Origin: Ignavibacteria bacterium
GTDB lineage: Bacteria; Elusimicrobiota; Endomicrobiia; PHAN01
DNA: 33,387 bases
Assembly: GCA_041694835.1 (NCBI GenBank)
Contig: JBGFRZ010000063.1
Location: 1 to 33,387, forward strand
Reading direction: 5' to 3'
Program-made: the position numbers and the translations under genes
Shown: positions 521 through 29,168 of the stretch, piece by piece
Layout: each line of letters starts with the position of its first letter
How positions within the stretch are numbered: position 1 is the stretch's first letter
Notes under the pieces: model-generated
Seen by the model: the letters and a program-made list of their open reading frames with translations, nothing else
Told to the model about the DNA's origin: nothing
Database searches by the model: none

Positions 521-1495
521 ATGTATATTATACTTTTGGCTTTAACCGCGGTTTTATGGGCGCTCAATATGGGGGCGACCAACTTTGCCATCTCATTCTC
601 TCCTTCCGTCGGCAGCAAAATTATTAAAAAAAACAGAGCATTGATTTTGTTCGCCGCATTCGTTTTGGCGGGTGCCGTTCTTATAGGCGGGAACGTCGTA
701 AGAACATTGAGCGGCAGAATCATTCCCAAAGAATTTTTGGGCAGGGAAGTTGTCCTGATAATACTTTTTTCCGCGGGCATTTCTCTTCATACGGCGAATT
801 TTATGAAGATACCCGTGTCGACGAGCATAACGATAGTGGGTTCGTTCGTAGGTGCGGGAATGTATTTTGGAGCACTGAATTATATGTTTATATTAAAGAT
901 GGTTTTCATCTGGGTATCTGTCGGCGCCGTTGCTTACTTTCTGACATATTATCTGACGAAACTATTCTATCCGCCGACCAACAAGAATTTATGGATTTAC
1001 GAAAAACTATTCAAGCACGAAGAAAAACTGAAAAAATGGACTCTTTATACAGATTGCTACAGCGCATTCGGCGACGGCTCAAACAACGTTCCCAATGTCG
1101 TCGGACCTCTTGTCGCCGTGGGACTACTGAGTCAGATGGCGGGCTTTTGGATTTTTGCGCCACTTTTCGCTTTGGGTGCGTTTCTTTTCGGAAGGGGGGT
1201 TTTAAGTACGGTAAGCGAAGAAATCATCCCTCTTGGAGTGCTATCCTCATCCGTTGTTTCGCTGATGATTTCTTCTTTTACTGTTTTTTGTTCTCTCTTA
1301 GGGATACCCGCTCCGAATGTCGTGTTTTCGGCGATGTCGATTCTCGGCGTTCAGACGGCCAAGGAAGAATCCAAACACGCTCAGCTTTTTATTCATCCTG
1401 TCACGAAAAAGATACTGATGGTTTGGCTGATTACGCCTCTTGCGGCTCTGTTTTTGACATATATAACGCTCTCTATCGCGGGACCGCCGAAATGA
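521..1495 (+). CDS. PiT/PHO4-family anion transporter, probably a CysP-like sulfate permease
   Basis: Multi-TM protein with PiT repeat motifs (NMGATNFA, IPVSTS, GDGSNNVPNVVGP, WLITP). Substrate is inferred from its position next to sat. Confidence 0.8.
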   Translation: MYIILLALTAVLWALNMGATNFAISFSPSVGSKIIKKNRALILFAAFVLAGAVLIGGNVVRTLSGRIIPKEFLGREVVLIILFSAGISLHTANFMKIPVSTSITIVGSFVGAGMYFGALNYMFILKMVFIWVSVGAVAYFLTYYLTKLFYPPTNKNLWIYEKLFKHEEKLKKWTLYTDCYSAFGDGSNNVPNVVGPLVAVGLLSQMAGFWIFAPLFALGAFLFGRGVLSTVSEEIIPLGVLSSSVVSLMISSFTVFCSLLGIPAPNVVFSAMSILGVQTAKEESKHAQLFIHPVTKKILMVWLITPLAALFLTYITLSIAGPPK

Positions 1496-2001
1496 TAAAA
1501 ATTCCAAAAGAAATTTTAACACACATCGTTGAACACTGTAAAAAGGAAGTTCCCTCTGAAGCGTGCGGAATTTTGGCAGGGCGTCGGGGTTGGAGTAGGG
1601 GATGTAGGGGCTTTAGCCCCGTAAATAACGAGCGTAAACGTTCTACTCCAGAGGCAATCGTGACTAAAGTATATAAAATGGAAAATATTTCAGAGAGCCC
1701 TGAGACTTGTTATTTTATGAAACCAGAAGAGCAACTGAAAGTTTTCAAGGAAATGCGTAAATCGGGGATAGAAATGCTTGGCATATACCACTCGCATTAC
1801 AAGGTTGCCGCAGAGCCGTCTTTGAGAGACATAGAACTCGCTTTCTATCCCGAAGCGGTTTATATTATTGTCTCGCTGGATTTGAAACAAGAACCCGGGG
1901 CGGGAGTTTTTTTGAAAAAAGAAAACGCAGCAATCAGAGGTTTTGGAATAACGGATAAAAAAATTTCCGAGGAAAAAATAGAAGTTATCAGCAAGAAATA
2001 A
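1492..2001 (+). CDS. JAB/MPN (M67) metalloprotease, Mec/HcyD-like sulfur-carrier processing peptidase, with a 20-aa in-frame insertion
   Basis: ATG at 1492 overlaps the upstream stop (ATGA). EACG and the intact JAMM motif HSH-x7-S-x2-D (HSHYKVAAEPSLRD) are present. Confidence 0.9.
   Translation: MIKIPKEILTHIVEHCKKEVPSEACGILAGRRGWSRGCRGFSPVNNERKRSTPEAIVTKVYKMENISESPETCYFMKPEEQLKVFKEMRKSGIEMLGIYHSHYKVAAEPSLRDIELAFYPEAVYIIVSLDLKQEPGAGVFLKKENAAIRGFGITDKKISEEKIEVISKK
1591..1650. repeat. 60-bp REP-like palindromic element inserted in frame in the JAB gene
   Basis: Terminal inverted repeats TGGAGTAG / CTACTCCA. Internal hairpin GGGGCT-TT-AGCCCC at 1607-1620 follows a GTAG. Exactly 20 codons, starting on a codon boundary. 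Confidence 0.8.
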
Positions 2002-4065: not shown

Positions 4066-4331
4066 GAGTGAAATGTCCAGGTAATTTACAGTCAAACATT
4101 AGGGCCGAGACGATTATATGCCCGGAATGTCACTACATGGTGGAGATTTTTTCCGATGAGACATGGCGCAAATGCCCGAGATGTAAAACAAAAGTTGAAA
4201 GGGCTCTTTTGCCCTCATGTGTCGAATGGTGCCCCGCCGCAAAATCGTGCATTGGGACTGTAAAATGGGCGGAAATCCAGAAAGATAAAGGAGGCAACAA
4301 TGAAGGTAAAAAGAAAGATAATAAAGATTGA
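4062..4331 (+). CDS. Small Cys-rich (zinc-ribbon or Fe-S) hypothetical protein
   Basis: CPG, CPEC..VEIFSDE..CPRC, SCVEWC..AKSC. ATGA coupling with the Nfu gene. Confidence 0.75.
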
Positions 4332-5100
4332 TGAGGAAAAATGCAACGGATGCAGTTTGTGTATTCCTTCATGTCCCGAAGGAGCGCTTGCTATTGTCGA
4401 GACGCCAAAGGGACCGAAGGCACGTTTAGTGAAGGAGAATTTTTGCGATGGACTCGGGGCGTGTCTCGGCGATTGTCCTGTGGATGCTCTGAAAGTTGTC
4501 GAGTCGGAAGTAGAAGAATACGACGAAGAAGGGGTTATCCAACACATAAAAGAAACCGCGCCCGAAAAACTTGAAAAACATCTTAAACATTTAAAAGAGC
4601 ATTCTGACGAACTGCCGAAAGCGCATCATAGTAAAGAGTCGCCATGCGGATGCCCTTCGGCTCAGATGCTTTCATGGGATGAGATTGAAAAAATCAGTAA
4701 ACCTTTGGAAAGAGTCGAGGTTTCATCCAAATTGAGACAGTGGCCTGTTCAGATAAAACTCGTCAACCCCCTGGCGCCTTATTTTTCCCGCCCCGGCGGG
4801 ACCGATTTGCTTGTCGCAGCCGACTGCGTTCCGTTTGCATATGGAGATTTTCATCAAGATTTTTTAAAAGGCAAGACAGTGGTTGTCGGCTGCCCCAAAC
4901 TTGATGATATTGATTATTATATTCAAAAACTTGCAGATATTTTTAAGACAGCCGATATAAAATCCGTTGAGACAATAATAATGGAAGTGCCGTGCTGTTC
5001 GGGGCTTAACTATGCGACTGAAGAGGCGCTCAAGTTGAGCGGAAAAAAAATTCCTCACAAAAATACGATTATCGGAATTAAGGGCGATAAAAAAATTTGA
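4300..5100 (+). CDS. 4Fe-4S dicluster ferredoxin-like iron-sulfur protein
   Basis: CNGCSLCIPSCP and CDGLGACLGDCP, followed by GCP, QWPVQI, AADC, GCPKLD and MEVPCC. RBS GGAGG upstream. Confidence 0.88.
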   Translation: MKVKRKIIKIDEEKCNGCSLCIPSCPEGALAIVETPKGPKARLVKENFCDGLGACLGDCPVDALKVVESEVEEYDEEGVIQHIKETAPEKLEKHLKHLKEHSDELPKAHHSKESPCGCPSAQMLSWDEIEKISKPLERVEVSSKLRQWPVQIKLVNPLAPYFSRPGGTDLLVAADCVPFAYGDFHQDFLKGKTVVVGCPKLDDIDYYIQKLADIFKTADIKSVETIIMEVPCCSGLNYATEEALKLSGKKIPHKNTIIGIKGDKKI

Positions 5101-5129
5101 AGCATTAGTTGTTTATAGTCGCATATTTA

Positions 5130-7430
5130 ATGTTCAAAATACCTCAGAAAGTAAAAAGCGAATCTTTAAGGTTCTCGGAAAATCTCAACAAACTTATTAA
5201 AGGAGAATTAAAAGAACCCTTTTTTAAAGGCATTCGCGTTCCGTGGGGATTTTATTCTCAACGCGGCGGCCGGGCGCTGATGTCGCGCCTGCGCGTCCCC
5301 GGAAGTATTTTATCGCCGAGGCAGATAAAAGCCGTCGGAAATGCTGCCGAAAATTTTGCAAGTGGAAAACTTCACATCACGACCCGACAGGACATACAAA
5401 TACACGACTTGCCTTACGCAAATGTCTCAAGAGTTATAGAATTCTTGGGAGATTATGAAATTTCTCCCCGAGGCGGCGGAGGGAATACCGTCAGAAACAT
5501 AACCACTTGCCCCCTTTCGGGCATATGCCCCAAAGAAAAAATTGAAGTCAACCGGCTTGTGATTCCCATTACGGAATATTTGCTTTCAGTCGATGATTCC
5601 TTCAATCTTCCCAGAAAATTAAAATTCGCTTTTTCGGGATGTCAAAAGGACTGCGCATCCTGCGGAGTCAACGATGTCGGGTTTGTGGCAACGCAAGACG
5701 GGTTCAAAGTTCTTTGCGGCGGGGGTCTTGGAGCGAAGAGTTCCGTCGGAAGAGTCCTTGCCGGGAATGTTCCCGCCGACGAAGTGATATACATACTGCG
5801 CGCCGTGATGAGTGTTTTCAACAAATACGGCGACAGAAAAAACAGACACCGCAACCGCCTCAGATTTTTGATTGAAGATTTGGGTTGGGAAAAATTTAAG
5901 GAACTCTATAACGGAGAATTCGAAAAAGTAAAAAACGAAGAGTATATTTTCTTAGACATAAAAGATAATTTGCCGTCTCTATCTCAAAGAGCGCCTTCCG
6001 CAGGGCGGGAATATTGCGACGAATCTTTCAATGAGTTTTTGAAATTCAGCACGGGCAGACAGAAGCAAAGCGGATATAGTTACGCAACGCTCAACGTGTC
6101 GTTCGGCGAGATTGCCGCCGACAAACTCTTCAAACTTGCGGATTTGGAACAAATTTTTCCCGCTCTTATTTTCAGAACAACGCAGAGACAAAATATAATC
6201 CTTACAAATATACCTTCGGAGAGATTATATGAACTTTACAGCGAACTAAAACTGATACTGACTGATTTTTTGTATCCTGACACGATTTACGATATTGTTT
6301 CCTGCAAGGCCGCAACGACCTGCAATCTCGGAATCTGCGACGCTATGTCGCTTGCGCCGGTTTTAGTCGGTGAACTTAAAAAATTGAAACCGGATTTAGA
6401 GAAATTCAAGAATTTTAAAATCAACATCAACGGATGTCCGAATGCCTGCGGGCAACATCCTTTGGGGAATTTGTCGTTTTCCGGCGCGGCGAAGAAAGTA
6501 TTTGACAGGACAGCCCCTTTTTACAAAGTTTACATAAACGGTTCTGCCTCCTCCGAAAATACCCGCCTTGCCTCTGATATTGGAATTATCCCCGCCAGGA
6601 ATATTCCGATTTTCTTTTCCGAACTTATATCCGCTCTTCCGGGTGCCGACACTATTAACGAATCGGAGGCGAAGACATTGATACGAAAGCACTCTCACAT
6701 CCCTTCCTATGACGAAGACCGCGAGTATTATGTGGATTTTGGCAAAACCGGGGACTTTTCACTTGAAGGGTTGTCTCAGGGAGAGTGCGGCGCCGGCGTA
6801 ATAGATATGCTCGAGTCGGATATAGAATCTGCCAGACAGTCGCTTGCGAAAGCCCGAGACAACGACTACGCTATGCCCGAAATTAAAAACGCCGTTGTTT
6901 TCGCCGCGCGTGCTCTCCTTGTTGTAAAAGGCATAGATGCAACAGGCGACATTGAAGCGGTAAAAAGTTTTAGCGAAAAATTCCCGGCAAGCGGAATAGT
7001 AAAACCGGATTTTAAAAATATCGTCGAAGTTTATGAAAAAATTGTCTCAGAAGACATTAAACCTGAGGATGCTTTCAAATACGCCTCCGCGCTTTTTGAA
7101 GAAGTGACAACAGTCTATTCCGGGATGGACGCCAACTTCAATTTTAAGCCACGTTTCGCTTCGGAAGTTAAACGAGATTCAAAATATGAAGAAAAAGTTT
7201 CGTCAACATACGACCTGCGTGGAACCCCATGCCCCATTAATTATGTCAAGACCAAACTAATGCTCGAAGAAATGTCCGCGGGAGATATTTTGGAGGTCCT
7301 GCTTGACGAGGGCCCACCGATAGAAAATGTGCCGAAAAGCCTAAAAAATGACGGACAAGAAATACTAAAAATCGAAAAATCGCAAAATTTCTATAAAATG
7401 CTGGTTAAAAAGAGAATCAGCCACGGATGA
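5130..7430 (+). CDS. Siroheme sulfite/nitrite reductase with a HEPN-like helical domain and a C-terminal TusA/SirA domain
   Basis: HITTRQDIQ, NLPRKLKFAFSGC, RTTQRQNI and INGCPNACGQH. C-terminal DLRGTPCPINYVKTKL is a TusA CPxP-like motif (about 7209-7430). ATG at 5130 is preferred over TTG at 5109. Confidence 0.9.
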   Translation: MFKIPQKVKSESLRFSENLNKLIKGELKEPFFKGIRVPWGFYSQRGGRALMSRLRVPGSILSPRQIKAVGNAAENFASGKLHITTRQDIQIHDLPYANVSRVIEFLGDYEISPRGGGGNTVRNITTCPLSGICPKEKIEVNRLVIPITEYLLSVDDSFNLPRKLKFAFSGCQKDCASCGVNDVGFVATQDGFKVLCGGGLGAKSSVGRVLAGNVPADEVIYILRAVMSVFNKYGDRKNRHRNRLRFLIEDLGWEKFKELYNGEFEKVKNEEYIFLDIKDNLPSLSQRAPSAGREYCDESFNEFLKFSTGRQKQSGYSYATLNVSFGEIAADKLFKLADLEQIFPALIFRTTQRQNIILTNIPSERLYELYSELKLILTDFLYPDTIYDIVSCKAATTCNLGICDAMSLAPVLVGELKKLKPDLEKFKNFKININGCPNACGQHPLGNLSFSGAAKKVFDRTAPFYKVYINGSASSENTRLASDIGIIPARNIPIFFSELISALPGADTINESEAKTLIRKHSHIPSYDEDREYYVDFGKTGDFSLEGLSQGECGAGVIDMLESDIESARQSLAKARDNDYAMPEIKNAVVFAARALLVVKGIDATGDIEAVKSFSEKFPASGIVKPDFKNIVEVYEKIVSEDIKPEDAFKYASALFEEVTTVYSGMDANFNFKPRFASEVKRDSKYEEKVSSTYDLRGTPCPINYVKTKLMLEEMSAGDILEVLLDEGPPIENVPKSLKNDGQEILKIEKSQNFYKMLVKKRISHG

Positions 7431-7744
7431 ACACTGATAAACATAGAAAAAATCCGTGATTTCCATGTCAAGATTTTATAATTTAATGTCTGCTGCCGCT
7501 ACACCAAAATGTTAATTACCACAAAGACGCGGAGAAAAATGAGGTAGTTCAAGAACTACCCCGATTGTCATCGGGAAAATTACCGACGGAGATGTAAGTT
7601 CCGTGTTATTAAAACTCTGAACCACGAAGACGCGAAAACGCGAAATCGGAGACTTTTTTCGTGATTTCTAACTTTCGTACTTTCGTGGTAAAGTTTTTTC
7701 TCTGTGTCTCTGTGGTGAGTTTTAGCGAAGCGTCAGTGAACCCT
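7420..7744. repeat. Mosaic of palindromic elements downstream of, and overlapping the end of, the sulfite reductase gene
   Basis: cacggat...atccgtg at about 7422-7458. GGTAGTTC-AA-GAACTACC at 7543-7560. CCCGAT..ATCGGG at 7560-7575. accacgaa...ttcgtggt at 7621-7689. 7711-7744 matches 19684-19717 at 33 of 34 nt. Confidence 0.8.
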
Positions 7745-7827
7745 GATTTACAGACACTGCATAGTCCTTGAGGGTATTGAAGACACAAAATTACATAGAG
7801 AAAAAAAGTTCAGAGTATCTGGTAAAG

Positions 7828-8187
7828 TTTTTAATCTGTGTTTATCCATGTTAATCTGTTAAAGAATCAAAAAATATGAAACCACAGATGGACACAGATA
7901 TTACGGAAAAAAATTCATGTAATTCGTGGTTACGTTTTTTAATCTGTGTTTATCCGTGTTAATCTGTTAAAGAATCAAAAAATATGAAACCACAGATGGA
8001 CACAGATATTACGGAAAAAAATTCATGTAATTCGTGGTTACGTTTTTTAATCTGTGTTTATCCGTGTTAATCTGTTAAAGAATCAAAAAATATGAAACCA
8101 CAGATGGACACAGATGTTACGAAAAAAAAATCGTGTAATTCGTGGTTGCGTTTTTTAATCTGTGTGTATCTGTGTTTATCCGTGGTT
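7828..8187 (+). repeat. Tandem repeat, period 108 bp, about 3 copies, made of CACAGAT/ATCTGTG palindromic elements
   Basis: aaaccacagatggacacagat starts at 7879, 7987 and 8095. Copies 1 and 2 are near-identical; copy 3 has several substitutions. Confidence 0.95.
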
Positions 8188-12061: not shown

Positions 12062-12077
12062 TTCTATGAGGTGCTCT

Positions 12078-13202
12078 ATGGAAATCATCGTGAACGGAAA
12101 AAAAGAAATAATAAATGAAGGAATAACGATTAATGAATTTCTTGGTAACAAAAAAATAAGACCCGAAGTTGTAACAATTGAACTCAACGAAGTTATATTA
12201 AACCGCGCTGAATATGAAAGCGTTAAAATCAGAGCTGGCGACAAACTCGAAATAGTGTTTTTTATGGGCGGCGGAAAAAGTGAGATTTGTCAAAGAATCC
12301 ATCAGTTAATCGGCAGAACCCCCGTAATAAAAATAGGGAATCTCACAGACGAAAACTCTGCCGAGATTCTTGCCAAGTTAGAGTTCTTTAATCCCGGCGG
12401 CAGCGTAAAAGACAGAATAGCGATTTCAATGATTGAAACCGCGGAAAAAGAAGGAGTTTTAAAAAGAGGTGGGACGGTGATTGAAGCGACGAGCGGAAAC
12501 ACCGGAATAGGTTTAGCTATGACTTGCGCTTCAAAAGGATATAGATGCGTGATAACTATGCCGGAGTCGATGAGTCTTGAGAGGGTTTATATTCTGAAAA
12601 GTTATGGTGCGGAGGTTATCCTGACTAACGCCGCCGAGGGGATGACAGGGGCGCTGAACAAGGCAAAACAGATATTATCCAAAAACACAAACGCATTTAT
12701 GTCGTCTCAGTTTAACAATCCCGCAAATCCCGATATTCACAGAAAGACAACAGCCCGCGAAATAATAGAAGCGACTGAAGGAAAAATAGACGCATTTGTC
12801 GCAGGGGTGGGAACGGGCGGCACCATAACCGGCGTCGGCGAGGTTCTGAAAAAATTTAATAAAGATATAAGAATTATCGCCGTTGAACCCGCAACGAGCG
12901 CCGTTTTATCGGGAAAACCCGCCGGGCCTCACAAGATTCAGGGGATAGGAGCGGGCTTTATCCCGGCCGTTTTGAATTTGAAGGTAATTGACGAGATAAT
13001 AACCGTCACAGACGCCGATGCGTATGACCAGTCCGTCGAAATATCAAAAAAAGAAGGAATTTCCGTCGGGATTTCATCGGGGGCAGCATTTTGGGCAGCC
13101 CGACAAGTGGCGTCAAGATTCCGCAAAGGGAAAACAGTCATAACAGTTTTTCCCGACAGCGGAGAAAGATATTTCAGTATCGCTCAGTATTTCAACATGT
13201 AG
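12078..13202 (+). CDS. cysK: ThiS-like sulfur carrier (66 aa, ending MGGG) fused in frame to a CysK/CysM-family cysteine synthase
   Basis: RBS GAGGTG at 12068 and ATG at 12078. The ThiS domain MEIIVNG...GDKLEIVFFMGGG ends at 12275. Then LIGRTP, KLEFFNPGGSVKDR (PLP Lys), TSGNTG, GVGTGGT, HKIQGIG and DSGERY. Confidence 0.93.
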   Translation: MEIIVNGKKEIINEGITINEFLGNKKIRPEVVTIELNEVILNRAEYESVKIRAGDKLEIVFFMGGGKSEICQRIHQLIGRTPVIKIGNLTDENSAEILAKLEFFNPGGSVKDRIAISMIETAEKEGVLKRGGTVIEATSGNTGIGLAMTCASKGYRCVITMPESMSLERVYILKSYGAEVILTNAAEGMTGALNKAKQILSKNTNAFMSSQFNNPANPDIHRKTTAREIIEATEGKIDAFVAGVGTGGTITGVGEVLKKFNKDIRIIAVEPATSAVLSGKPAGPHKIQGIGAGFIPAVLNLKVIDEIITVTDADAYDQSVEISKKEGISVGISSGAAFWAARQVASRFRKGKTVITVFPDSGERYFSIAQYFNM

Positions 13203-13398: not shown

Positions 13399-14205
13399 GT
13401 GCCTTTAACAGAATCTCAAATTGAAAGATATTCGCGTCAGATTATTCTCCATGAAATAGGCGGCCGCGGCCAGCATAAAATTTTCAATGCAAAGGTGCTT
13501 GTCATAGGCACGGGAGGGCTCGGCTCACCGTGCACATATTATCTTGTCGCCGCCGGAGTGGGGACATTGGGCATTGTTGATTCGGACAATGTTGAAATCA
13601 ACAATCTTCAAAGGCAGATAATCCACTCGATGAAAAATGTCGGGAAGCCGAAGGTCGAGTCCGCCAGGCATCGCGCCGAAGAACTCAATCCCGATGTAAA
13701 AGTAATCCCACACAAAATAAGAGTTACATCCGGAAATATTATGGATTTAATAAAGAGCTACGATATAGTTGTCGACGGTTCCGATAATTTTCCGACGAGA
13801 TATCTAGTCAATGACGCATGCGTCATTGCGAAAAAACCGCTTGTCCACGCGGGAATTTTAAGATTCGACGGTCAGATAATGACGATAATTCCACACGACG
13901 GGCCGTGTTACCGATGTCTCTTCCCCGAGCCGCCGGCACCCGGAATGGTTCCGAGTTGTCAGGAAGCCGGAATTCTCGGCGCGGCAGCGGGTATCTTCGG
14001 AGTTCTTCAAGCGGCAGAAGTCATGAAACTCATTCTTCACATGGGAGAACCGCTTAAAGGCCGTCTTCTTATAGGGAATTTACTTGATATGAGTTTCAGA
14101 GAAGTAAAGATAAAGAGAAACCTACGATGTCCCGTCTGCGGTGAAAATCCAACCATAAAACGTCTCATGGATTATGAAGAGTTCTGCAGCCTCATAAAAA
14201 AATAG
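13399..14205 (+). CDS. moeB: MoeB/ThiF/HcyF-family sulfur-carrier adenylyltransferase (E1-like), no rhodanese domain
   Basis: Motifs ERYSRQII, GTGGLGSP, NLQRQ, DGSDNFPTRYLVND, CYRC, SCQEAG and CPVC. RBS AGGAGG and GTG start. Confidence 0.93.
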   Translation: MPLTESQIERYSRQIILHEIGGRGQHKIFNAKVLVIGTGGLGSPCTYYLVAAGVGTLGIVDSDNVEINNLQRQIIHSMKNVGKPKVESARHRAEELNPDVKVIPHKIRVTSGNIMDLIKSYDIVVDGSDNFPTRYLVNDACVIAKKPLVHAGILRFDGQIMTIIPHDGPCYRCLFPEPPAPGMVPSCQEAGILGAAAGIFGVLQAAEVMKLILHMGEPLKGRLLIGNLLDMSFREVKIKRNLRCPVCGENPTIKRLMDYEEFCSLIKK

Positions 14206-17824: not shown

Positions 17825-18083
17825 TTGCCGATTCGCCCCGTTTAAAAATATTCCACAACTTTGTTAAATTTTGTTAAGCAGCCCGACGGAGTGATTTTTT
17901 AAGTCCGAGGGATTTTTGGTAAAATTTATAGTTCTTTGTAATCCAGTCAGCAGTTGTGTTAGAATTAAGTTTTCGGAATAATTCTAACTGTTGTCCCATA
18001 GTTTTAGGTTTAGTCAGGAAGATTTAAATTGAACCCCAAGACAACTTTTGTAAAAAAGTAAAGGGTAAGGAGTGAAGAAAAAT

Positions 18084-19202
18084 ATGAAAATTCAGCTCGT
18101 TGATTTGTCCGCAGGTTATCATGAAATAAGAGACGAAATAGAAACCGCCGTCAGGAAAATTCTCGACAAAACGAACTTCGTGCTCGGCGAGGAGGTGGAC
18201 CAATTTGAAAAAGAATTTGCCGCTTTTTGCGGCAGTAAATATGCTGTCAGTGTGGCGAGTGGAACTGACGCTTTAAAAATAGCGCTGTTGGCTGCCGGAA
18301 TTGAAAATGGCGACGAAGTAATAACGACACCCAGCACTTTCGTTGCGACCACAGAAGCAATTGTTCAAAGTAAAGCAGTGCCAGTTTTTGCGGATGGGCT
18401 TCTTGACACATATAACTTAAATCCAAATGAAGTTGAAAAGAAACTCACCAAAAAAACAAAAGCAATACTGCCAGTTCATCTTTACGGTCATCCATCCGCT
18501 ATGGACGAAATTATCCGCATCTCGCAAAAATACAATTTACAAATTATTGAGGACTGCGCTCAATCGTTTACGGCGCAATATAAAAATTCAGACGGAAAGT
18601 GGCGCTATACAGGGACATTGGGCGTTGCGGGGTGTTTTAGTTTTTTTCCGGCAAAAAATTTAGGGGCATTCGGCGACGGCGGGATGCTCGTCACCGACGA
18701 CGAAAAACTTTACGACAATGCAAAGGCATTAAGAAGTCACGGCAGCCATGTGAGATATTATCACGACTTTGACGGCTTTAACTCCCGTCTTGATACTATT
18801 CAAGCAGCAATACTTTCTGTCAAGTTGAAACATATTACCAGATGGACGAAAATGAGAAATGATGTCGCCAGGAAATACAACGAGTTGCTCGGCGGTTCGG
18901 TCATAGTTCCCGTCAGTAAAGAAAATTGTAGACACTCTTTCAATTACTATAACATCAGATTTGCGAATAAGCACAGCAGAGATAAAGTTCAAAAAGCGTT
19001 GCTCGATAACGGGGTTGCTTGTCAGATTTATTATCCTTTGCCCCTTCACCTTCAGAAGGCGTATGTTCATTTAGGTTATAAAAAAGGCGATTTTCCCGTT
19101 GCAGAAAAAATATCCGACGAAACACTCGCTTTGCCGATGTATCCCGAATTATCTGATGAGCAGATAAGATACATTGTGAAGGTTGTCAAAAGCAATTTGT
19201 AG
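18084..19202 (+). CDS. DegT/DnrJ/EryC1/StrS-family sugar aminotransferase
   Basis: Motifs SGTDAL, PVHLYG, IEDCAQS, FSFFPAKNLGAFGDGG, NSRLDTIQAA and LPMYP. GTG at 18072 is an alternative start. Confidence 0.93.
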   Translation: MKIQLVDLSAGYHEIRDEIETAVRKILDKTNFVLGEEVDQFEKEFAAFCGSKYAVSVASGTDALKIALLAAGIENGDEVITTPSTFVATTEAIVQSKAVPVFADGLLDTYNLNPNEVEKKLTKKTKAILPVHLYGHPSAMDEIIRISQKYNLQIIEDCAQSFTAQYKNSDGKWRYTGTLGVAGCFSFFPAKNLGAFGDGGMLVTDDEKLYDNAKALRSHGSHVRYYHDFDGFNSRLDTIQAAILSVKLKHITRWTKMRNDVARKYNELLGGSVIVPVSKENCRHSFNYYNIRFANKHSRDKVQKALLDNGVACQIYYPLPLHLQKAYVHLGYKKGDFPVAEKISDETLALPMYPELSDEQIRYIVKVVKSNL

Positions 19203-19205
19203 TTT

Positions 19206-19582
19206 AATTGGACGCAGATAAAGGTGGATAAACGCAGATTAAAGCAACCATAAAATCATCGCCGATTACTACACTCGGGGGCAGGTTCTGCGTTCATCCT
19301 GTAAATCTGCGTCCTAAAATTTATCAGGAACATTTCTAATGGGACGCAGATAAACGCAGAAAAGACAGGATTAAGAATTATCTGCGTTAATCTTGTAAAT
19401 CTGCGTCCTAAAAAACTAATTGAACGCAGATGAACGCAGAAATAACTTTGATAAACGCAGATTAAAGCAACTATAAACTCATCTGCGAAAGTCCGCGTCC
19501 TAAAAAACTAATTGAACGCAGATATACGCAGAAAAAACAGGATTTAAGAATTATCTGCGTTAATCTTGTAAATCTGCGTCCT
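19206..19582 (+). repeat. Array of four palindromic units with 9-nt periodic arms (G[G/A]ACGCAGAT...ATCTGCGTCCT)
   Basis: Units at 19206-19315, 19342-19409, 19418-19501 and 19510-19582, joined by A-rich linkers. Two interior subtypes alternate. Confidence 0.93.
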
Positions 19583-19585
19583 AAA

Positions 19586-19616
19586 TATTACTTGAACCAT
19601 ATATCATCACCTCTAT
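19586..19616. repeat. Exact 31-bp copy of 20478-20508 (5' UTR, RBS and first five codons of the antitoxin gene)
   Basis: TATTACTTGAACCATATATCATCACCTCTAT at both positions. Flanking bases differ on both sides. Confidence 0.95.
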
Positions 19617-19618
19617 GA

Positions 19619-19657
19619 CCCCCGATTACTACACTCGGGGGCAGGTTCTATCGGGGG
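19619..19657. repeat. CCCCCGA-TTACTACAC-TCGGGGG-CAGGTTCT hairpin element
   Basis: 28 bp identical at 19262-19289 and 19622-19649. A variant lies at 20817-20845 and a partial reverse copy at 22122-22136. Confidence 0.85.
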
Positions 19658-19822
19658 TTTTTCTCTGCGCTCTCTGCTCCCCTTGTGGTGAGTTTTAGCG
19701 AAGCGTCAATGAACCCTATTTCACACTTTGATTGTGGTTGCCGGAAGCGGATATGAATTTGTTATTGAATCACCAATGAGACGGCCGTGCGGGCGCTCTT
19801 GTGGTTAAAGATTTTTCAGGAA

Positions 19823-20212
19823 TTATATAGTTGATATTGAAAAGAGTGCAACAATTTCTCTCAATACAGAGTCGAAGGCGGGCTCATTAGTCGGAAGAAC
19901 ATCATCTTCACTTTTAAAGTGCTTATGGTGGGGAAATGTGCTAATTGCTTTATAATGAGGGGCGTTATCATAACGAAAAATAATTTTTCCAGTTCTTGTT
20001 TGGTAATGATACGAATATTGAATTTTATTGTGTTGTGTTGAATCGATTATTTCCAGCAGGTAAAGCTTTGAGATATCAATAAATGTAATGTGCCCTTTTA
20101 CTTTTCCTAAACTGGTTGAGCGGGATTCAAAGATGATTGTTTCGGATAAAATGAAAGGTGAGAAGTTTTTCAGGGAATGTCGTATCTTATCGAAATATTT
20201 TTCAATCAGCAA
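19823..20212 (-). CDS. DUF6516/TumE-like toxin of a type II toxin-antitoxin pair
   Basis: Motifs YSYHYQ, IFRYDNAPHY and TFPHHKH. TTG at 20212 overlaps the antitoxin end; 20236 is an alternative start. Confidence 0.78.
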   Translation of the reverse strand: MLIEKYFDKIRHSLKNFSPFILSETIIFESRSTSLGKVKGHITFIDISKLYLLEIIDSTQHNKIQYSYHYQTRTGKIIFRYDNAPHYKAISTFPHHKHFKSEDDVLPTNEPAFDSVLREIVALFSISTI

Positions 20213-20492
20213 ATTTAATCTCTCGAATTTCGGCAAGTTTGTTTTTCAATCTGTTAAGAATTTCTTTTTCGCCAGCCCATTCAATAAAATCAATTTTATC
20301 ACCCAGAAGTCCCTGTTGAAACTTTTTGTAGAAGGAGTCTGTTTTCATCTTGTAATGTTTTTCAAATTGTTCAAGAATCTTTTTTGTCTGATTGATAGCA
20401 ATTTTAAGAGAATATTCTCTATTTCTGACCGTTTCTTCAAGGAGAACCCGAATGTTTTTTTTGTTATTGGGTTCGATTATTACTTGAACCAT
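20202..20492 (-). CDS. TumA-like antitoxin
   Basis: FEKHYKMKTDSFYKKFQQGLLGDKIDFIEW signature. RBS GAGGTG. It lies upstream of and overlaps the toxin gene. Confidence 0.75.
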   Translation of the reverse strand: MVQVIIEPNNKKNIRVLLEETVRNREYSLKIAINQTKKILEQFEKHYKMKTDSFYKKFQQGLLGDKIDFIEWAGEKEILNRLKNKLAEIREIKFAD

Positions 20493-20515
20493 ATATCATC
20501 ACCTCTATAAAGACG

Positions 20516-20544
20516 ATTATAATAAAAATATATAAAAAAGTCAA
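20516..20544 (-). promoter_or_regulatory. Sigma70 promoter of the TA operon
   Basis: On the minus strand: TTGACT (20544-20539), 17 nt, TATAAT (20521-20516). Predicted +1 is at about 20508-20509. Confidence 0.8.
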
Positions 20545-20632
20545 AAAGGCAAATTCCGTATATTCTGTTCGTCGATTGATTGAAGATGTTGAGTCCGCTT
20601 TTTTATCTGACATTTGGCATAAAGAAATAAAG

Positions 20633-20902
20633 ACAGCGAATAGCAAATAGCAATAGCGAATAGTGATTGACGACCGGTGATAGGTGTTGTAGTTGCCGAC
20701 CTGCCCCGTTATGGCAGGGTTTATCGGCTATGTAGCGCGAATGGATTTCCGATACAGAGATTCGGGAATGACAAGACAAAAAAACGAAAATTGTAGCGGC
20801 ACAGTTCCCCGACAACGACCCCCGATTACTACATTCGGGAACAGGCATTCGGGGACAATCTTTACGGTGACTATATGTTGCACCACAAGGCGGCGCTGCT
20901 AC
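20633..20902. repeat. Nested REP-like mosaic upstream of the GT4 gene
   Basis: AGCGAAT/AGCAAAT heptamers at 20635-20663. GCCGA..CCTGCC..GGCAGG..TCGGC at about 20694-20728. TGGATT..CGGGAATGACA at 20742-20773. GTAGCGGC...GCTGCTAC at 20793-20902 encloses the CCCCGATTACTAC element. Confidence 0.7.
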
Positions 20903-20926
20903 GATTGCGTATGACAAAATGATTTT

Positions 20927-22006
20927 ATGTCGAAACCCAAAATATTTTGTCTCTCAACAAGTTTAAACATCGGCGGAGCGGAAAAATTTTTAACGACGGT
21001 TGTAGAAAAATTAGGACATAGATACGATTTTACCGTCGGGTATTTGAAAGATAGGGGCTATTACGGCAAATATCTTTCCGACGAGAAAGGCATAAAAGTA
21101 ATAAAATTTAACTGCCCGTGGTCGCTTAAAAATTATTTGCTTGAGAATGACTTTCGCATTCTGCACACTTTTCTTTATCGCGCCAATATATTCGGTCGTT
21201 TTTCGGGAAAACTCGCCGGGTCGCCGCACATAATTTCAACTCAACTTGCAATCGATAAATGGAAAAGATGGTACTATGTACTTCTTGACAGATGGACTGC
21301 CAGATGGTGTTCTACAATCATTGCCAATTCCGAGTCGGCAAAAATGACTCTGATATGCCGCGAAAAAATCCCCGCGAAAAAAATCAAAGTAATATATAAC
21401 GGTTTAGATTTTGATAAAATAATAGCGGTTAAACCGTCGGAAGAAATAAGAAAAGAGTTTGGACTCAATGAAAGTGAGCCGGTAATAATTTGTGTTACAA
21501 GATTGCACTATGAAAAAGGGACGGACTTACTGCCGTCTATCGCATCAAAAGTTAAAAATGGTATTTTTCTGATTGTGGGTGATGGTCCCCAGAGGAATAA
21601 GTTGGAGGTTGTGGTAAGAGAGCGGGGATTAAGCGATAGATTTCGGATTCTCGGCTGGCGTAAGGACGTCTTGGCGTTGCTGAAAATCTCCGACATATTT
21701 CTTTTACCTTCAAGGGAAGAGAGTTTTTCGCAGGCCTTGCTTGAGGCGTTTTCCGCGGGTCTCCCCGCAGTTGTTTCAAATGTCGGCGGCATAAAAGAGT
21801 TGGTAGAAGACGGCAAAACAGGATTTCTGATAAAGCCCGGCGCTCTCGACGATTTCAGTGGTAAAATAAATTTTCTTATTGAAAATCCGTCAGAGGCGAA
21901 GAAAATGGGTACAGCGGGGTTTGAAAAAGCGAAGGATTTTTCTGAGGACAAAATGATTGCTGCCGTCGACACCTTATACGACGATTTATTGGTTTTAAAA
22001 AGATAA
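20927..22006 (+). CDS. Glycosyltransferase family 4 (GT-B)
   Basis: Motifs IGGAEK, IYNGLD, VGDGP, PSREESFSQALLEA and VGGIKELV. Confidence 0.92.
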   Translation: MSKPKIFCLSTSLNIGGAEKFLTTVVEKLGHRYDFTVGYLKDRGYYGKYLSDEKGIKVIKFNCPWSLKNYLLENDFRILHTFLYRANIFGRFSGKLAGSPHIISTQLAIDKWKRWYYVLLDRWTARWCSTIIANSESAKMTLICREKIPAKKIKVIYNGLDFDKIIAVKPSEEIRKEFGLNESEPVIICVTRLHYEKGTDLLPSIASKVKNGIFLIVGDGPQRNKLEVVVRERGLSDRFRILGWRKDVLALLKISDIFLLPSREESFSQALLEAFSAGLPAVVSNVGGIKELVEDGKTGFLIKPGALDDFSGKINFLIENPSEAKKMGTAGFEKAKDFSEDKMIAAVDTLYDDLLVLKR

Positions 22007-22018
22007 AAGAAAAGATTG

Positions 22019-22160
22019 AACCACAGATGGACGCAGATGTCATTCCAGTCAGAATGGTTTTATCGGGGAACGGGGAACCCCGTTTGCACGGGGACGATGT
22101 CTATGATTATGGATTCTAAATAGAACCTGTCCCCGAAATTTGTATGTAAATCTGCGTCCT
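22019..22160. repeat. Single palindromic unit whose arms enclose about 105 bp of other hairpin fragments
   Basis: Left arm AACCACAGATGGACGCAGAT at 22019-22038 and right arm TGTAAATCTGCGTCCT at 22145-22160. Inside are GTCATTCC, AACGGGG-AA-CCCCGTT and AGAACCTGTCCCCGA. Confidence 0.8.
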
Positions 22161-22196
22161 AATAGTTTTTGACGATAATAAAGAGGATGAGAGTAT

Positions 22197-23465
22197 ATGA
22201 AAGACAATTACAAAATCGCCGTTATAGGTCTTGGGTATGTCGGGTTGCCGCTTGCGCTTGAGTTTGCAAAAAACGGAATCGAGGTTCTTGGTATAGACAC
22301 GGACGAAAAGAAAACCGACATGATAAATCGCGGAAAAAGTTATATAACCGATGTTCCGATGGCGGGAATTAAATCCGCTGTTGGCAAAAGAAAATTATCG
22401 GCAACGTCTGATTTTTCCAAATTGAGAAAATATGATGTTATAATAATCTGCGTGCCAACACCTTTACGGAAATCGAAAGAACCAGATGTTTCATATGTCG
22501 TCTCAGCCGCTCAAGAGGTTAAAAAGTATTTGAGAAAAGGCCATCTTGTGATTCTTGAGTCGACCACATATCCCGGAACCACGAGAGAACTCGTTTTGCC
22601 TATGTTTGAAGAAACAAGACTGAAATGCGGCAAGGATTTTTATTTAGCGTTTTCGCCCGAGCGAGTTGACCCCGCAAATAAAATCTATAAAATTCACAAC
22701 ACCCCGAAAATAGTCGGCGGCATAACTAAAAAATGTACAGATATGGCTTATGCTCTCTACTCCAGAATTATCGAAAAAGTGCTCAAGGTTTCGTCCAGCG
22801 AATCGGCGGAGATGGTTAAACTCCTTGAAAACACATTCAGGGCGGTGAACATAGCTCTCGTGAACGAGGTCGCACTTATGTGTGAAAAATTGAAAATTGA
22901 TGTCTGGGAGGTTATCAGCGCCGCAGCCACAAAACCCTTTGGTTTTATGCCGTTTTATCCCGGCCCCGGAATAGGGGGGCATTGCATTCCTTTAGACCCT
23001 CATTATCTTTCCTGGAAGTTAAAGACGCTAAATTTTTTCTCTCGATTTATTGAACTTGCTGGCGATATAAACTCGAACATGCCCGAGTATGTGGTTAGAA
23101 GAATTTCGGCGATTTTCGACAAAAAAAGCAAAACAGTTAATGGCTCAAAAATTCTTATTCTTGGAGTCGCATACAAACCAAATGTCAGCGATTGGCGGGA
23201 GTCGCCTGCTATAGACATAATAAAACTGTTGAAAGAAAGGAACGCCTTTGTGGATTATTGCGACCCTTTTGTGCCTGTGCTTGATGAGACAAAAATGAAG
23301 TCGAAAAAATATCTCCATTCTTTGTTCGGAAAATATGATTGCGTGGTTATAGTGACCAATCACAGCGATTTTGACATCGCCGCTCTTGTGAAAAGTTCAA
23401 AACTTATTTTCGACGCAAGAAATGCGACACATGGCATAGATGACAAGAAAATTACAAGATTATAA
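22197..23465 (+). CDS. UDP-N-acetylhexosamine 6-dehydrogenase (WbpA/WecC/TviB family)
   Basis: Motifs GLGYVGLP, CVPTP, ESTTYPGTT, SPERVDP, KLLENTFR, GGHCIPLDP and AYKPNVSDWRESP. Confidence 0.94.
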   Translation: MKDNYKIAVIGLGYVGLPLALEFAKNGIEVLGIDTDEKKTDMINRGKSYITDVPMAGIKSAVGKRKLSATSDFSKLRKYDVIIICVPTPLRKSKEPDVSYVVSAAQEVKKYLRKGHLVILESTTYPGTTRELVLPMFEETRLKCGKDFYLAFSPERVDPANKIYKIHNTPKIVGGITKKCTDMAYALYSRIIEKVLKVSSSESAEMVKLLENTFRAVNIALVNEVALMCEKLKIDVWEVISAAATKPFGFMPFYPGPGIGGHCIPLDPHYLSWKLKTLNFFSRFIELAGDINSNMPEYVVRRISAIFDKKSKTVNGSKILILGVAYKPNVSDWRESPAIDIIKLLKERNAFVDYCDPFVPVLDETKMKSKKYLHSLFGKYDCVVIVTNHSDFDIAALVKSSKLIFDARNATHGIDDKKITRL

Positions 23466-24972
23466 TCTATATCTCGTTTCAATTTTACTTATCGGTTTTG
23501 TTTTGAGAATAACAGGCATCAACTGGGGGTTGCCGCTTAAACATCTACATATAGATGAATCCGTTGTTATATTTTATTCGGTCAGGATGTTGACTGGGAA
23601 TCTGAATCCCGCGCCTTTTTTCGACTACCCGTCACTTTTTCTCTATATACTCTTTTTCACCTACGCAGCCGTGTTTTTGCTCGGCAAAACTTTTGGCTTT
23701 TATGGAAGTTTGGACGAATATGTCGGGCTTTACAAAAATTTTGACCCGTCAATTTTTTATCTTACGGGAAGATTTCTGAATGTGATTTTTTCCGTCGCCA
23801 CGATATATCTGGTTTATAAGATAGGGGAAAAACTGAGTGGCAAAAAAGCCGGACTTATCGCCTCTTTTATGTTTTCAATCGCACCGCTTCATGTTTTACA
23901 TTCGCATTATGCCACAGTGGATGTCCCCGCTCTTTTTTTTGCCATTCTTTCTTGCTACTTCATTATATCTTATCACTTGAGCGGTAGAATTAGAGAATTT
24001 TTTATGGCAAGTTTTTTTCTGGGTCTCGCCGTGTCTACAAAATATTATCCGGTAATTTTTATTTTGAATCTTTTCGCTGCTTTGGTCATAAACGTTAAAA
24101 AACAAAAATTGTCGCCAAACAAATTGTTTCCTTTGGGTGGCGTCTCTTTTATTTTGATTTTATTTGGTTTTTTTGCAGGCACTCCGTTCGTCGTTATAGA
24201 TTTTAAAAACTTTTCAAACAGATTTTCTCATATTTTCGAAAATGTGATTTTTGGAGATAGAATTTTTAATTTGTTTTATTTTGGCAGGGACTTTTTATTG
24301 GGATTAAAGACTGCATTTTTAGGACTCATCGATGGTCTCGGATTGTTTTTATTCGTCGTTTCTTTGATGGGAGTTATCTGGTCTCTTGTGAAGTTTAAGA
24401 AAAATTCATTGTTTTTCCTGACCTTGCCTGCGGTGTTTATTTTTTTTGTCAGTTTTTGGAAAGTATTGTCGGCCCATTACTTGTTTCCAATTCATCCTTT
24501 TTTCTTGATATCGGGAGCAATTTTACTCGGCGATATGGCGAACAAAAAATCCCGCATTATCTTGATGGTTGTTTTGACGACATTGTCAACCCTGCCCAAA
24601 ACGGCATATTCGGTTTATCTTTTGACGCGTCCGGACACAAGAGTGGAAGCTTATAGATGGATTAAAAAAAATATCCCGGCAGGAACCAATATTTTAAGAA
24701 GTCCGTCCACGCCCAACTTCAGCTCAAAAGATCCTTACCGAGTCACGTGGGACGGCGAATGGAAAATATTCGACAAAATGTGCTCGCGTATTTTGGAAAA
24801 ATACGATTATATTCTCATGACACTCAATCCGGAATTTGAAAAAAGATTTTCGGAAAATCTCATTTCTCTTAATGAGTTTAGCAGGGTGAAATTTGCACCA
24901 CATCACAACCCGACTGTAAAAATATATAAAGTTGCAAATATGAAACCACAGATGAACACAGTTGAGCACTGA
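23440..24972 (+). CDS. GT-C fold (ArnT/PMT-like) membrane glycosyltransferase
   Basis: N-terminal TM followed by WGLP..HIDE, FDYPSL, SHYATVD and STKY. The last ~10 codons derive from a repeat arm. Confidence 0.82.
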   Translation: MTRKLQDYNLYLVSILLIGFVLRITGINWGLPLKHLHIDESVVIFYSVRMLTGNLNPAPFFDYPSLFLYILFFTYAAVFLLGKTFGFYGSLDEYVGLYKNFDPSIFYLTGRFLNVIFSVATIYLVYKIGEKLSGKKAGLIASFMFSIAPLHVLHSHYATVDVPALFFAILSCYFIISYHLSGRIREFFMASFFLGLAVSTKYYPVIFILNLFAALVINVKKQKLSPNKLFPLGGVSFILILFGFFAGTPFVVIDFKNFSNRFSHIFENVIFGDRIFNLFYFGRDFLLGLKTAFLGLIDGLGLFLFVVSLMGVIWSLVKFKKNSLFFLTLPAVFIFFVSFWKVLSAHYLFPIHPFFLISGAILLGDMANKKSRIILMVVLTTLSTLPKTAYSVYLLTRPDTRVEAYRWIKKNIPAGTNILRSPSTPNFSSKDPYRVTWDGEWKIFDKMCSRILEKYDYILMTLNPEFEKRFSENLISLNEFSRVKFAPHHNPTVKIYKVANMKPQMNTVEH

Positions 24973-24977
24973 AAATC

Positions 24978-25420
24978 AATTGGACGCAGATAAACGCAGA
25001 AAAACAGGATTTAAGAATTATTTGCGACAATCTGCGAAAATCTGCGTCCTAAAAAACTAATTGAACGCAGATGAACGCAGAAACAACTTTGATAAATGCA
25101 GATTAAACATTCATAAAATCATCCGCGACAATCTGCGTCCTAAAAAATAATTGAACGCAGATGAACGCAGAAACAACTTTGATAAACGCAGATTAAACAT
25201 TCATAAAATCATCCACGACAATCTGCGTCCTAAAAAATAATTGAACGCAGATGAACACAGAAACAACTTTGATAAACGCAGATTAAAGCAACTATAAACT
25301 CATCTGCGGAAATCTGCGTCCTAAAATTCATTAGTAACATTTCTAATGGGATGCGGATGAACGCAGATTGACGGGATAATAAACGAAAAAATCCGTGTTA
25401 ATCTTGTAAATCCGCGTCCT
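24978..25420 (+). repeat. Array of five palindromic ACGCAGAT/ATCTGCGT units; the central three have a 90-bp period
   Basis: Units at 24978-25050, 25059-25141, 25149-25231, 25239-25322 and about 25348-25420. Confidence 0.95.
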
Positions 25421-25436
25421 AAAGGATTAAAAAAGT

Positions 25437-28093: not shown

Positions 28094-28106
28094 CTGCCAA
28101 TAAGAT

Positions 28107-29144: not shown

Positions 29145-29168
29145 AAAATCCCAAATAATGCAAGAATA

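Follow-up and report, generated by a model that had tools for sequence, protein, structure and literature searches.

A recurrent in-frame fusion of ThiS to the cysteine synthase CysK as a putative sulfur-carrier precursor polyprotein

The stretch of DNA analysed here (the window, 33,387 nucleotides [nt]) is one whole contig, JBGFRZ010000063.1 (C74), of assembly GCA_041694835.1, a 1.9 Mb, 97% complete genome deposited as an Ignavibacteria bacterium and placed by GTDB in the Endomicrobiia (Elusimicrobiota). On its forward strand, an open reading frame (ORF; 12066..13202) was found to join a ThiS-type ubiquitin-fold sulfur carrier, through its Gly-Gly motif and without a stop, to a cysteine synthase of the CysK type. 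The best explanation of this arrangement, and one we regard as probable, is that the product is a precursor polyprotein, which a JAMM protease encoded in the same window would cut after Gly-Gly to free a carrier that delivers sulfur to the synthase; the chemical steps, cleavage included, are proposed from homology and genomic context. The original prediction, made from the sequence alone, had likewise read the gene as a precursor cut by this protease, and its precursor reading was the best supported of those weighed here.

Translation from the ATG at 12078 (374 amino acids [aa], 12078..13202) is likelier than from the first codon of the frame at 12066 (378 aa), judging by GAGGTG 4 nt ahead of this ATG and by an N-terminus, MEIIVNGKK, that matches the family. 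A complete 66-aa ThiS domain ending in FFMGGG (12078..12275) and running stop-free into CysK, as originally described, was confirmed by the ORF and by profile matches. PF02597 (ThiS, Pfam) covered residues 11–70 (378-aa numbering, as for all profile matches to this protein) with profile positions 13–76 of 76 (34.7 bits, cut-off 22.5), TIGR01683 (thiS, NCBIfam) covered residues 7–70 (61 bits, cut-off 37.45), and both matches stopped precisely at the final Gly of FFMGGG. The domain retained each of the 21 columns that are invariant in the subfamily alignment (A2), and its nearest solved relatives were the ThiS structures 2k5p/3cwi, 1tyg_B and 1f0z.

At the junction (GGG-KS, 12267..12281), the DNA reads GTG TTT TTT ATG GGC GGC GGA and then AAA AGT GAG ATT TGT, encoding VFFMGGG followed by KSEICQRIHQLIGRTP. 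No stop, N or frameshift was found there, and no N anywhere in the window. The Gly-Gly at which members of the ThiS family normally end is here followed by 308 residues, so a free Gly-Gly terminus would arise only after cleavage, for which the predicted scissile bond is Gly66 (12273–12275)/Lys67 (12276–12278). The 308-aa synthase (12276..13202 including its stop), which has no start codon of its own, matched PF00291 (PALP) over residues 79–364 and the full-length equivalog TIGR01139 (cysK) over residues 79–373 (435 bits, cut-off 351), with both matches starting eight residues past the GGG. Its best matches in the PDB were CysK-type enzymes (e.g. 2q3b, 4e-105), and it aligned without gaps to a standalone Endomicrobia CysK at 68% identity, beginning from residue 13 of the latter. 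The lysine of SVKDR (K111) that binds pyridoxal 5′-phosphate (PLP) and the TSGNTG motif (T138–G143) were invariant across 56 aligned fusions, that of the window included.

The original claim that no in-frame ATG, GTG or TTG precedes CysK held for the linker but not for the last strand of the ThiS domain, where an ATG (Met63, 12264–12266) and a GTG (Val60, 12255–12257) lie in frame just before the junction. Past the GGG, the first in-frame ATG, GTG or TTG is the ATG at 12429; since this falls beyond the PLP-lysine codon (12408–12410), the CysK of the window can be produced only as part of the fusion. A separate internal start for CysK was ruled out, there being no start codon between the GGG and the PLP lysine, and so was a recoded stop at the junction, where no stop codon exists.

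The ThiS + PALP architecture was found to recur widely. A word-indexed search with residues 1–100 retrieved 11 further database proteins of 374–386 aa, all with both domains; in their alignment, FMGGG was invariant and the linker after it variable. Species-representative genomes were scanned with a profile restricted to the ThiS domain, which confirmed 88 loci; the best 80 of them were used for counting. In 52 of these, thiS was fused in frame to cysK, two more fusions reached a contig end, and 26 loci were unfused (one being a fusion broken after 132 residues), giving 54 fused loci out of 80. Together with the 11 database proteins, this recurrence places the fusion far beyond chance. Most fusions came from loci labelled Omnitrophota (34 fused, 13 unfused), with one or a few cases each in Planctomycetota, Caldisericota, Saganbacteria/Margulisbacteria, Ratteibacteria, Zixibacteria, Nitrospirota and Dictyoglomota; all seven Elusimicrobiota loci among the 80 were unfused. 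At least 72 of the 80 loci, drawn from many phyla, had thiS either fused to cysK or directly upstream of it. A search of protein representatives with the first 100 residues gave 2027 proteins at E ≤ 0.001, with about eight of the top matches spanning the junction; as the representatives are clustered at 50% identity and fusions are masked under CysK clusters, these counts are uninformative.

Conservation at the junction was confined to the carrier side. M63-G64-G65-G66 was invariant in all 56 aligned fusions and MGGG was present in 80/80 loci, so that fusions lacking Gly-Gly, which would have spoken against a precursor, were not encountered in either set. The columns that follow had an entropy of 2–3 bits, and between GGG and the Thr that is invariant in the CysK xTP motif lay 8 to 28 residues over the 56 fusions (14 in the window gene). 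Immediately after GGG, the residues in the 54 fusions were M (16), S (10), E (9), L (4), A (4), C (3), G (2), Q (2) and one each of T, I, R and N. Unfused carriers ended exactly in GGG in just 3 of 26 loci, the remainder, apart from the broken fusion, having 1–28 extra residues: short tails were N (three loci), C (one), YAF, RYAF, GYAF, ENG, ELF, ECPTN and QYNER, and the others had 8–28 residues. Because most unfused orthologues carry such tails, trimming past Gly-Gly is likely to be general in this ThiS subfamily. The median ratio of nonsynonymous to synonymous substitution rates (dN/dS) in fused genes was 0.146 for the ThiS part and 0.062 for CysK (57 of 108 pairs with unsaturated dS), in pairs that are not independent of one another and with dS often saturated; as judged from these ratios, purifying selection acts on the ThiS portion of fused genes.

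Two loci had irregularities of their own. In L059 (2259 onward), the ThiS-CysK fusion is stopped 132 residues past GGG, and an intact fusion (L085) occurs in the same assembly. In L068, a run of N follows the junction near 6540.

Comparison of junction DNA revealed that fused and unfused genes differ by 1–4 nt. At the unfused omnitrophotan locus L035, the sequence GGA T ATG CCT TTT AGC ends thiS as GGG-YAF-stop, and cysK starts from the overlapping ATG; at L063 and L068, where the genes are also separate, four bases stand ahead of the same ATG. At the fused loci L036, L031, L084 and L069, the sequence is GGN ATG CCT TTT TCT GAC, encoding GGG-MPFSD (GGA ATG CCT TTT TCT in L036). A cut after GGG in such seamless fusions would restore a native ThiS and a native Met1-CysK. 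The cysK ATG directly after GGG is kept in 16 of the 54 fusions, which might for that reason also produce free CysK; the 1:1 ratio of carrier to synthase originally proposed thus stands for the window gene but need not hold for those 16. In 15 of the 54, as in the window gene, the linker has no start codon.

On a CysK tree of 86 rows, from which matches aligned over fewer than 250 residues were excluded, the fused/unfused label required 11 changes by parsimony, at least three of them forced by well-supported branches. A single common origin of all fusions was therefore ruled out. The CysK of the window, on a branch of length 0.67, paired weakly with a fused Ratteibacteria gene (Shimodaira–Hasegawa-like approximate likelihood ratio test, 88) and apart from the unfused Endomicrobia genes. 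With a Gly-Gly-specific protease already in the system, loss of the stop codon between thiS and cysK would be costless, which would explain the repeated gain and reversal of the fusion.

The candidate protease is encoded at 1492..2001 on the forward strand (169 aa). Its earlier identification as a JAB was borne out by a match to Prok-JAB (PF14464, 6e-21) and by the complete JAMM/MPN+ motif, with Glu 23 in EACG and HSHYKVAAEPSLRD corresponding to HSHx7SxxD. The HxHx7SxxD motif was present in 49/49 same-strand JAB ORFs of related loci, and H100, H102, S110 and D113 were invariant in the JAB alignment (A3); the nearest solved structures were 2kks (1.6e-44) and PfJAMM1 (5lda/5ld9, 4e-19). Co-occurrence with the fusion was as the precursor reading anticipates: a JAB was found in 28/28 fused and 9/11 unfused loci with at least 6.5 kb of upstream sequence. 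The 22 fused loci without a JAB all had less than 5.7 kb upstream, and in 14 of the 21 genomes to which they belong a Prok-JAB was found elsewhere. At L049 and L053, the JAB lies directly upstream of carriers that end exactly in GGG. Because it also adjoins such tail-less carriers, its primary job is probably hydrolysis of a carrier–cysteine adduct in the manner of Mec+, with trimming as a by-product.

The window protease also carries two insertions that are absent from all 22 aligned orthologues, one of about 24 residues after the EACGILAG motif (GWSRGCRGFSPVNNERKRSTPEAI) and one, close to the C-terminus, of about 11. The start codon of its gene overlaps the stop codon of the permease gene upstream, in the sequence ATGA.

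Downstream of the fusion, and with no terminator-like site between the two genes, an E1-like adenylyltransferase of the ThiF/MoeB family is encoded at 13399..14205 on the forward strand (268 aa, no rhodanese domain; PF00899 1.5e-83, with MoeB/UbaA-like NCBIfam matches). A 773-aa sulfite reductase hemoprotein (5109..7430, forward strand) matched the NIR_SIR and NIR_SIR_ferr domains and ended in a TusA/SirA domain with a Cys-Pro motif (TPCPIN); it is likely to be the sulfur source for the carrier. Among loci with at least 6 kb downstream, an E1 was present in 30/30 fused and 19/20 unfused cases, and a TusA match in 30/30 and 16/20, respectively. Carrier, E1, JAMM protease and sulfhydrylase, all present in the window, occurred together in 21 of the 22 loci that extend 8 kb or more in each direction.

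The rest of the genome adds to the support for a precursor. Single matches above cut-off were obtained genome-wide for cysKM (the fusion), Prok-JAB (the window JAB) and the ThiF family (the window E1), and cysE and a PAPS/APS reductase were found elsewhere in the genome. A thiG-thiH-thiE operon on contig C73, with 8 nt between thiH and thiE, contains no thiS; in the nearest relative (G001) the order is thiG-thiH-thiS-thiE, and its thiS ends in FMGGG-stop. The fused domain is the sole ThiS-type carrier in the assembly and, because thiG and thiH are nevertheless present, has to be released in order to function.

All four ThiS/MoaD-family domains of this genome have residues after Gly-Gly. Apart from the ThiS followed by CysK (374 aa), these are a MoaD-like domain ending in AIAGG and followed by a NIL domain (177 aa; L001 1489–2022, contig C39), situated after a ThrC-like gene (L001 247–1476); a MoaD-like domain ending in PIAGG and followed by a CoA_binding_2 domain (232 aa; L002 1259–1957, contig C20); and a fourth carrier ending in LLIGGG with nine further residues, HSSAQEHKA (90 aa; L004 1471–1743, minus strand, contig C26), which lies next to an SBP_bac_11 solute-binding protein. 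The genome yielded no MoaE. In two relatives of the same family (G001 and G002), the MoaD-like gene has its stop right after PPVAGG, and the CoA-binding protein is encoded by a gene of its own downstream; the junction of the PIAGG carrier reads GG-Q-T-DISKILK, compared with M-DIPQILK in the relatives. The ThrC-adjacent carrier of five class-level relatives is joined to E1 instead (357 aa, ThiS + ThiF, AIAGG-TELTEQQIERYSRQ), and a separate 86-aa NIL protein follows. In both the NIL-fused and the E1-fused arrangements, the carrier is preceded by a ThrC-like PLP enzyme that bears a zinc ribbon at its N-terminus, and this ThrC-adjacent set may constitute a second thiocarboxylate-dependent amino-acid pathway.

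A wider proposal, which we put forward tentatively and would sooner doubt than accept, is that a single JAMM protease matures all of these carriers, that freed ThiS doubles as the sole thiazole carrier, and that carrier polyproteins recur by 1-nt changes. With equal reserve, a resident Gly-Gly protease might make loss of the stop after any carrier gene neutral, or useful for fixed stoichiometry or folding. Eukaryotic fusions of ubiquitin to ribosomal proteins are comparable ubiquitin-like (Ubl) precursors, and if the single-protease proposal were true, the present genes would be a bacterial counterpart of these ubiquitin-fusion genes.

Forty relatives of the same family or class were compared; as kin they are not independent, and the counts describe a pattern rather than a statistic. 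A JAB was present in 10 of the 40 and the cysK-linked ThiS subfamily in seven, all seven with a JAB; the five genomes with carrier–E1 fusions all have a JAB as well. None of the 20 genomes of family f4 had a JAB or the cysK-linked subfamily, ordinary short ThiS being the only type there. The ThiS-CysK fusion itself was found in 0/40 relatives. In G001, one strand of contig C10 (L106, 66000–75000) carries CysK, a 149-aa ORF, a ThiS ending in FMGGGR, a MetY-like sulfhydrylase, an E1, a JAB (130 aa) and a sulfite reductase. The 149-aa ORF is unannotated and was taken by eye for a Rrf2-type regulator. The CysK of this locus is only 56% identical to that of the window, so the fused gene may not be its vertical orthologue. 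This combination of carrier, MetY-like enzyme, E1, JAB and sulfite reductase is the layout of the homocysteine system characterised in Wolinella succinogenes, HcyS-HcyD-HcyF-MetY-Sir, in which the carrier, too, is made with residues past Gly-Gly that a JAMM protease of the cluster removes.

In the pathway proposed, translation from ATG 12078 would yield the 374-aa ThiS-GGG-KS-CysK precursor, and the JAMM protease (1492–2001) would hydrolyse the Gly66–Lys67 bond, releasing the 308-aa CysK and a 66-aa ThiS whose C-terminus is a Gly-Gly carboxylate. The E1 (13399–14205) would adenylate Gly66, and ThiS would become a thiocarboxylate with sulfur supplied by the sulfite reductase-TusA protein, probably by way of the TusA cysteine. 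CysK would form aminoacrylate from O-acetylserine supplied by CysE, the thiocarboxylate would attack the aminoacrylate and, following an S-to-N acyl shift, the same JAMM protease would release cysteine and recycle ThiS. These last reactions are the mechanism of the CysO/CysM/Mec+ system, which is the chemistry proposed for the window. Freed ThiS would probably also act as the carrier for thiazole synthesis by ThiG/ThiH. On the grounds of homology and context, cleavage of the fusion after Gly-Gly appears highly probable and the window JAB is the likely processing protease; use of the ThiS thiocarboxylate by CysK is favoured on balance.

Several findings weigh against this pathway. The synthase scored below the CysM cut-offs (TIGR01138 291, cut-off 394; NF008735 280, cut-off 413) and lay closest to sulfide-using enzymes such as Mycobacterium tuberculosis CysK1 (2q3b), and the ThiS profile retrieved no CysO chain from the PDB. 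Thiocarboxylate use by CysK is the weak step, because the enzyme is CysK-type and below the CysM cut-offs and the carrier is ThiS-like, not CysO-like; moreover, since the genome makes O-acetylserine and sulfide, CysK could work without a carrier. The E1 lacks the rhodanese domain of MoeZ, and the JAB lies 10 kb from the fusion. In 7 of the 21 genomes with flank-poor fused loci, no JAB was found, dedicated profile included; in all seven assemblies the contig breaks off within 3 kb upstream of thiS, in the region where a JAB usually sits, and they neither refute nor support its role. Finally, the fusion contig was found in one assembly alone, on which the junction rests.

The alternative that survives best, although we consider it improbable, is that the fusion is cleaved but ThiS serves only thiazole synthesis by ThiG/ThiH or other thiolations, with CysK using free sulfide and the fusion being a neutral accident tolerated by the Gly-Gly protease. 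A sulfide-using A-type CysK accompanied by cysE and sulfite reductase would suit this view, as would a thi operon without thiS, thiamin needing a carrier in any case. ThiS, ThiF, CysK and CysI are also described as clustering around thiazole synthase genes in a preprint (10.1101/2025.09.23.678117). The fusion and fission changes, at least three and most parsimoniously 11, are as expected of a near-neutral trait, but the adjacency or fusion of thiS and cysK in at least 72 of 80 loci from many phyla is tighter than co-regulation requires. The JAB beside tail-less carriers at L049 and L053 suggests hydrolysis of a carrier–amino-acid adduct, and the nearest relative has the same carrier type beside a MetY-like sulfhydrylase, E1, JAB and sulfite reductase, both of which speak for a partnership between carrier and sulfhydrylase.

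It is also unlikely that the cut after Gly-Gly is made by another protease or by self-processing, and not by the JAB at 1492–2001. No self-processing motif is known in ThiS, and a JAB accompanied all 28 fused loci with enough flank. The seven genomes (of 21 checked outside the locus) with no detectable JAB and the 10 kb separating the two genes in the window would fit such a protease, but those seven assemblies all break where the JAB usually lies. A precedent can be cited on each side: the protease acting on M. tuberculosis MoaX was reported as unidentified (PMC4326299), but a linear MoaD-MoaE fusion was shown to be cut by a JAMM protease (PMC8832034).

The original prediction had offered a tethered domain regulating CysK as its alternative, and an uncleaved regulatory domain is disfavoured by the present data. 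In its fuller form, which we judge quite unlikely, ThiS would stay attached as a docking or regulatory module of CysK, recruiting for example E1 or the sulfite reductase-TusA protein, and would never be a thiocarboxylate carrier. N-terminal extensions are generally tolerated by CysK, but docking would not call for an invariant MGGG ahead of a freely varying linker, and the same domain stands alone in 26 of the 80 loci. The genome would then possess thiG and thiH but no usable ThiS, and 30/30 loci keep the E1, an enzyme known to act only on free C-terminal glycines. Ubl-ThiF fusions that coexist with solo ThiS, for which a different role has been suggested (PMC1779556), speak in favour of docking. 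Least of all is the junction to be put down to an assembly or sequencing artefact with separate true genes as in relatives, a very remote prospect despite the single assembly, the long CysK branch (0.67) and the lack of the fusion in the 40 relatives, for the join is in frame with conserved residues on both sides, gap-free against standalone CysK and in a window without N, the architecture occurs in 54 independent assemblies, and two other carrier genes of this genome are fused in frame to downstream neighbours where relatives have a stop, which independent errors would not yield.

The principle behind the precursor reading, a Ubl sulfur-carrier precursor, a JAMM protease and a carrier–enzyme fusion, is already known and has been demonstrated in one case. 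Iyer, Burroughs and Aravind (PMC1779556) described operon types with ThiS/MoaD, JAB, E1, cysteine synthase and sulfate-assimilation genes including SirA, listed ThiS-ThiG, MoaD-MoaE, Ubl-ThiF and sulfite reductase-ThiS fusions, and predicted in 2006 that JAMM proteases cleave ThiS/MoaD fusions; no ThiS–cysteine synthase fusion is mentioned in the accessible portion of that article. Nor was any description of a ThiS-CysK fusion found in open-access full-text literature. In Deinococcus radiodurans, DRJAMM (DR0402) cuts the natural MoaD-MoaE fusion DR2607, and a DRJAMM mutant accumulates cyclic pyranopterin monophosphate (PMC8832034); MoaX must be cut after Gly82 (PMC4326299). In both proteins the cut after the last Gly is needed for activity and is made, in Deinococcus, by a JAMM/MPN+ protease (PMC8832034, PMC4326299). 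The window gene shares with them a ubiquitin-fold carrier N-terminal to its partner enzyme, Gly-Gly at the junction and a JAMM protease in the genome. It differs in that the partner is a PLP-dependent cysteine synthase and not MoaE, the carrier is ThiS-type and not MoaD-type, cleavage is predicted, and the pathway would be sulfate assimilation to cysteine (probably thiamin too) rather than molybdopterin.

The clustering of a Ubl carrier bearing Gly-Gly with an E1, a JAMM protease and an O-acyl- or O-phosphoserine sulfhydrylase resembles the CysO/CysM/Mec+/MoeZ system of M. tuberculosis (PMC3227635, PMC1779556), and the presence of sulfite reductase and sulfate-assimilation genes in the same cluster resembles operon type 4e of PMC1779556. 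However, CysO is MoaD-like and a separate gene, unlike the fused, ThiS-type carrier of the window; CysM is an O-phosphoserine-specific branch, unlike the window enzyme, which scores as CysK; and in place of the rhodanese domain of MoeZ, the TusA domain on the sulfite reductase is the likely sulfur relay. QbsE and CxnE are likewise made with residues past Gly-Gly, tails of 2 and 10 residues, respectively, which the JAMM proteases of their clusters (QbsD and CxnF) remove (PMC5925218). Unlike the tails of HcyS, QbsE and CxnE (1–10 residues), the "tail" in the window is a whole 308-aa enzyme. Archaeal ubiquitin and SAMP precursors (CsUb-pre and CsSAMP) are cut after Gly-Gly by CsRpn11 and CsJAMM, JAMM proteases that also deconjugate the Ubl (PMC6043591). 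In contrast to these protein modifiers, nothing in the window suggests conjugation to proteins, and no E2- or E3-like gene was seen among its domain matches.

What appear to be undescribed so far are CysK as the fusion partner, the commonness of the fusion in Omnitrophota and other uncultured phyla, its seamless 1-nt origin, and a genome whose sulfur carriers are all precursors, with the fused one as its single ThiS. If the precursor reading is true, a sulfur carrier released by proteolysis is concealed behind thousands of genes annotated as cysteine synthase A in Omnitrophota and other uncultured phyla, and genomes seemingly without thiS, like this one, would in fact have ThiS. The fusion and its JAB would then make a simple, soluble pair of proteins with which to test the Gly-Gly-specific processing of precursors in bacteria, and a natural case of a pre-existing protease allowing neighbour genes to fuse and split freely. 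The known chemistry of thiocarboxylate-dependent sulfur transfer is unchanged by the finding.

The remainder of the window holds further genes of sulfate assimilation, heme synthesis and glycosylation. An ATP sulfurylase with its 5′ end cut by the contig end (1–516, forward strand; PF01747) and a CysP-type sulfate permease (521–1495, forward strand; PF01384, with NF053884 below cut-off) lie directly upstream of the JAB, and the same order of ATP sulfurylase, CysP and JAB occurs in L045, L074 and L081. The hemC, siroheme and heme genes are on the forward strand, like the cluster. The sulfite reductase-TusA gene has an annotated TTG start, and the same fusion occurs in most related loci. Just upstream of it (4300–5100), a 266-aa protein begins with a 2×[4Fe-4S] ferredoxin domain of ~65 residues, and its ~200 C-terminal residues matched no Pfam or NCBIfam family; it may be the electron donor of the sulfite reductase. 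Between the sulfite reductase and a cobA/hemD fusion, ~730 nt (7431–8161) contain no ORF of at least 60 aa, and no Rfam match reached the gathering score over the window, this interval included. Finally, a co-directional glycosylation cluster occupies 18072–33251 and comprises a DegT-type aminotransferase, two GT4 and one GT2 glycosyltransferases, a UDP-sugar dehydrogenase, a GT family 4 (MraY/WecA-like) transferase, three large PMT_2 (ArnT/PMT-like) membrane glycosyltransferases and an amine oxidase-like flavoprotein.

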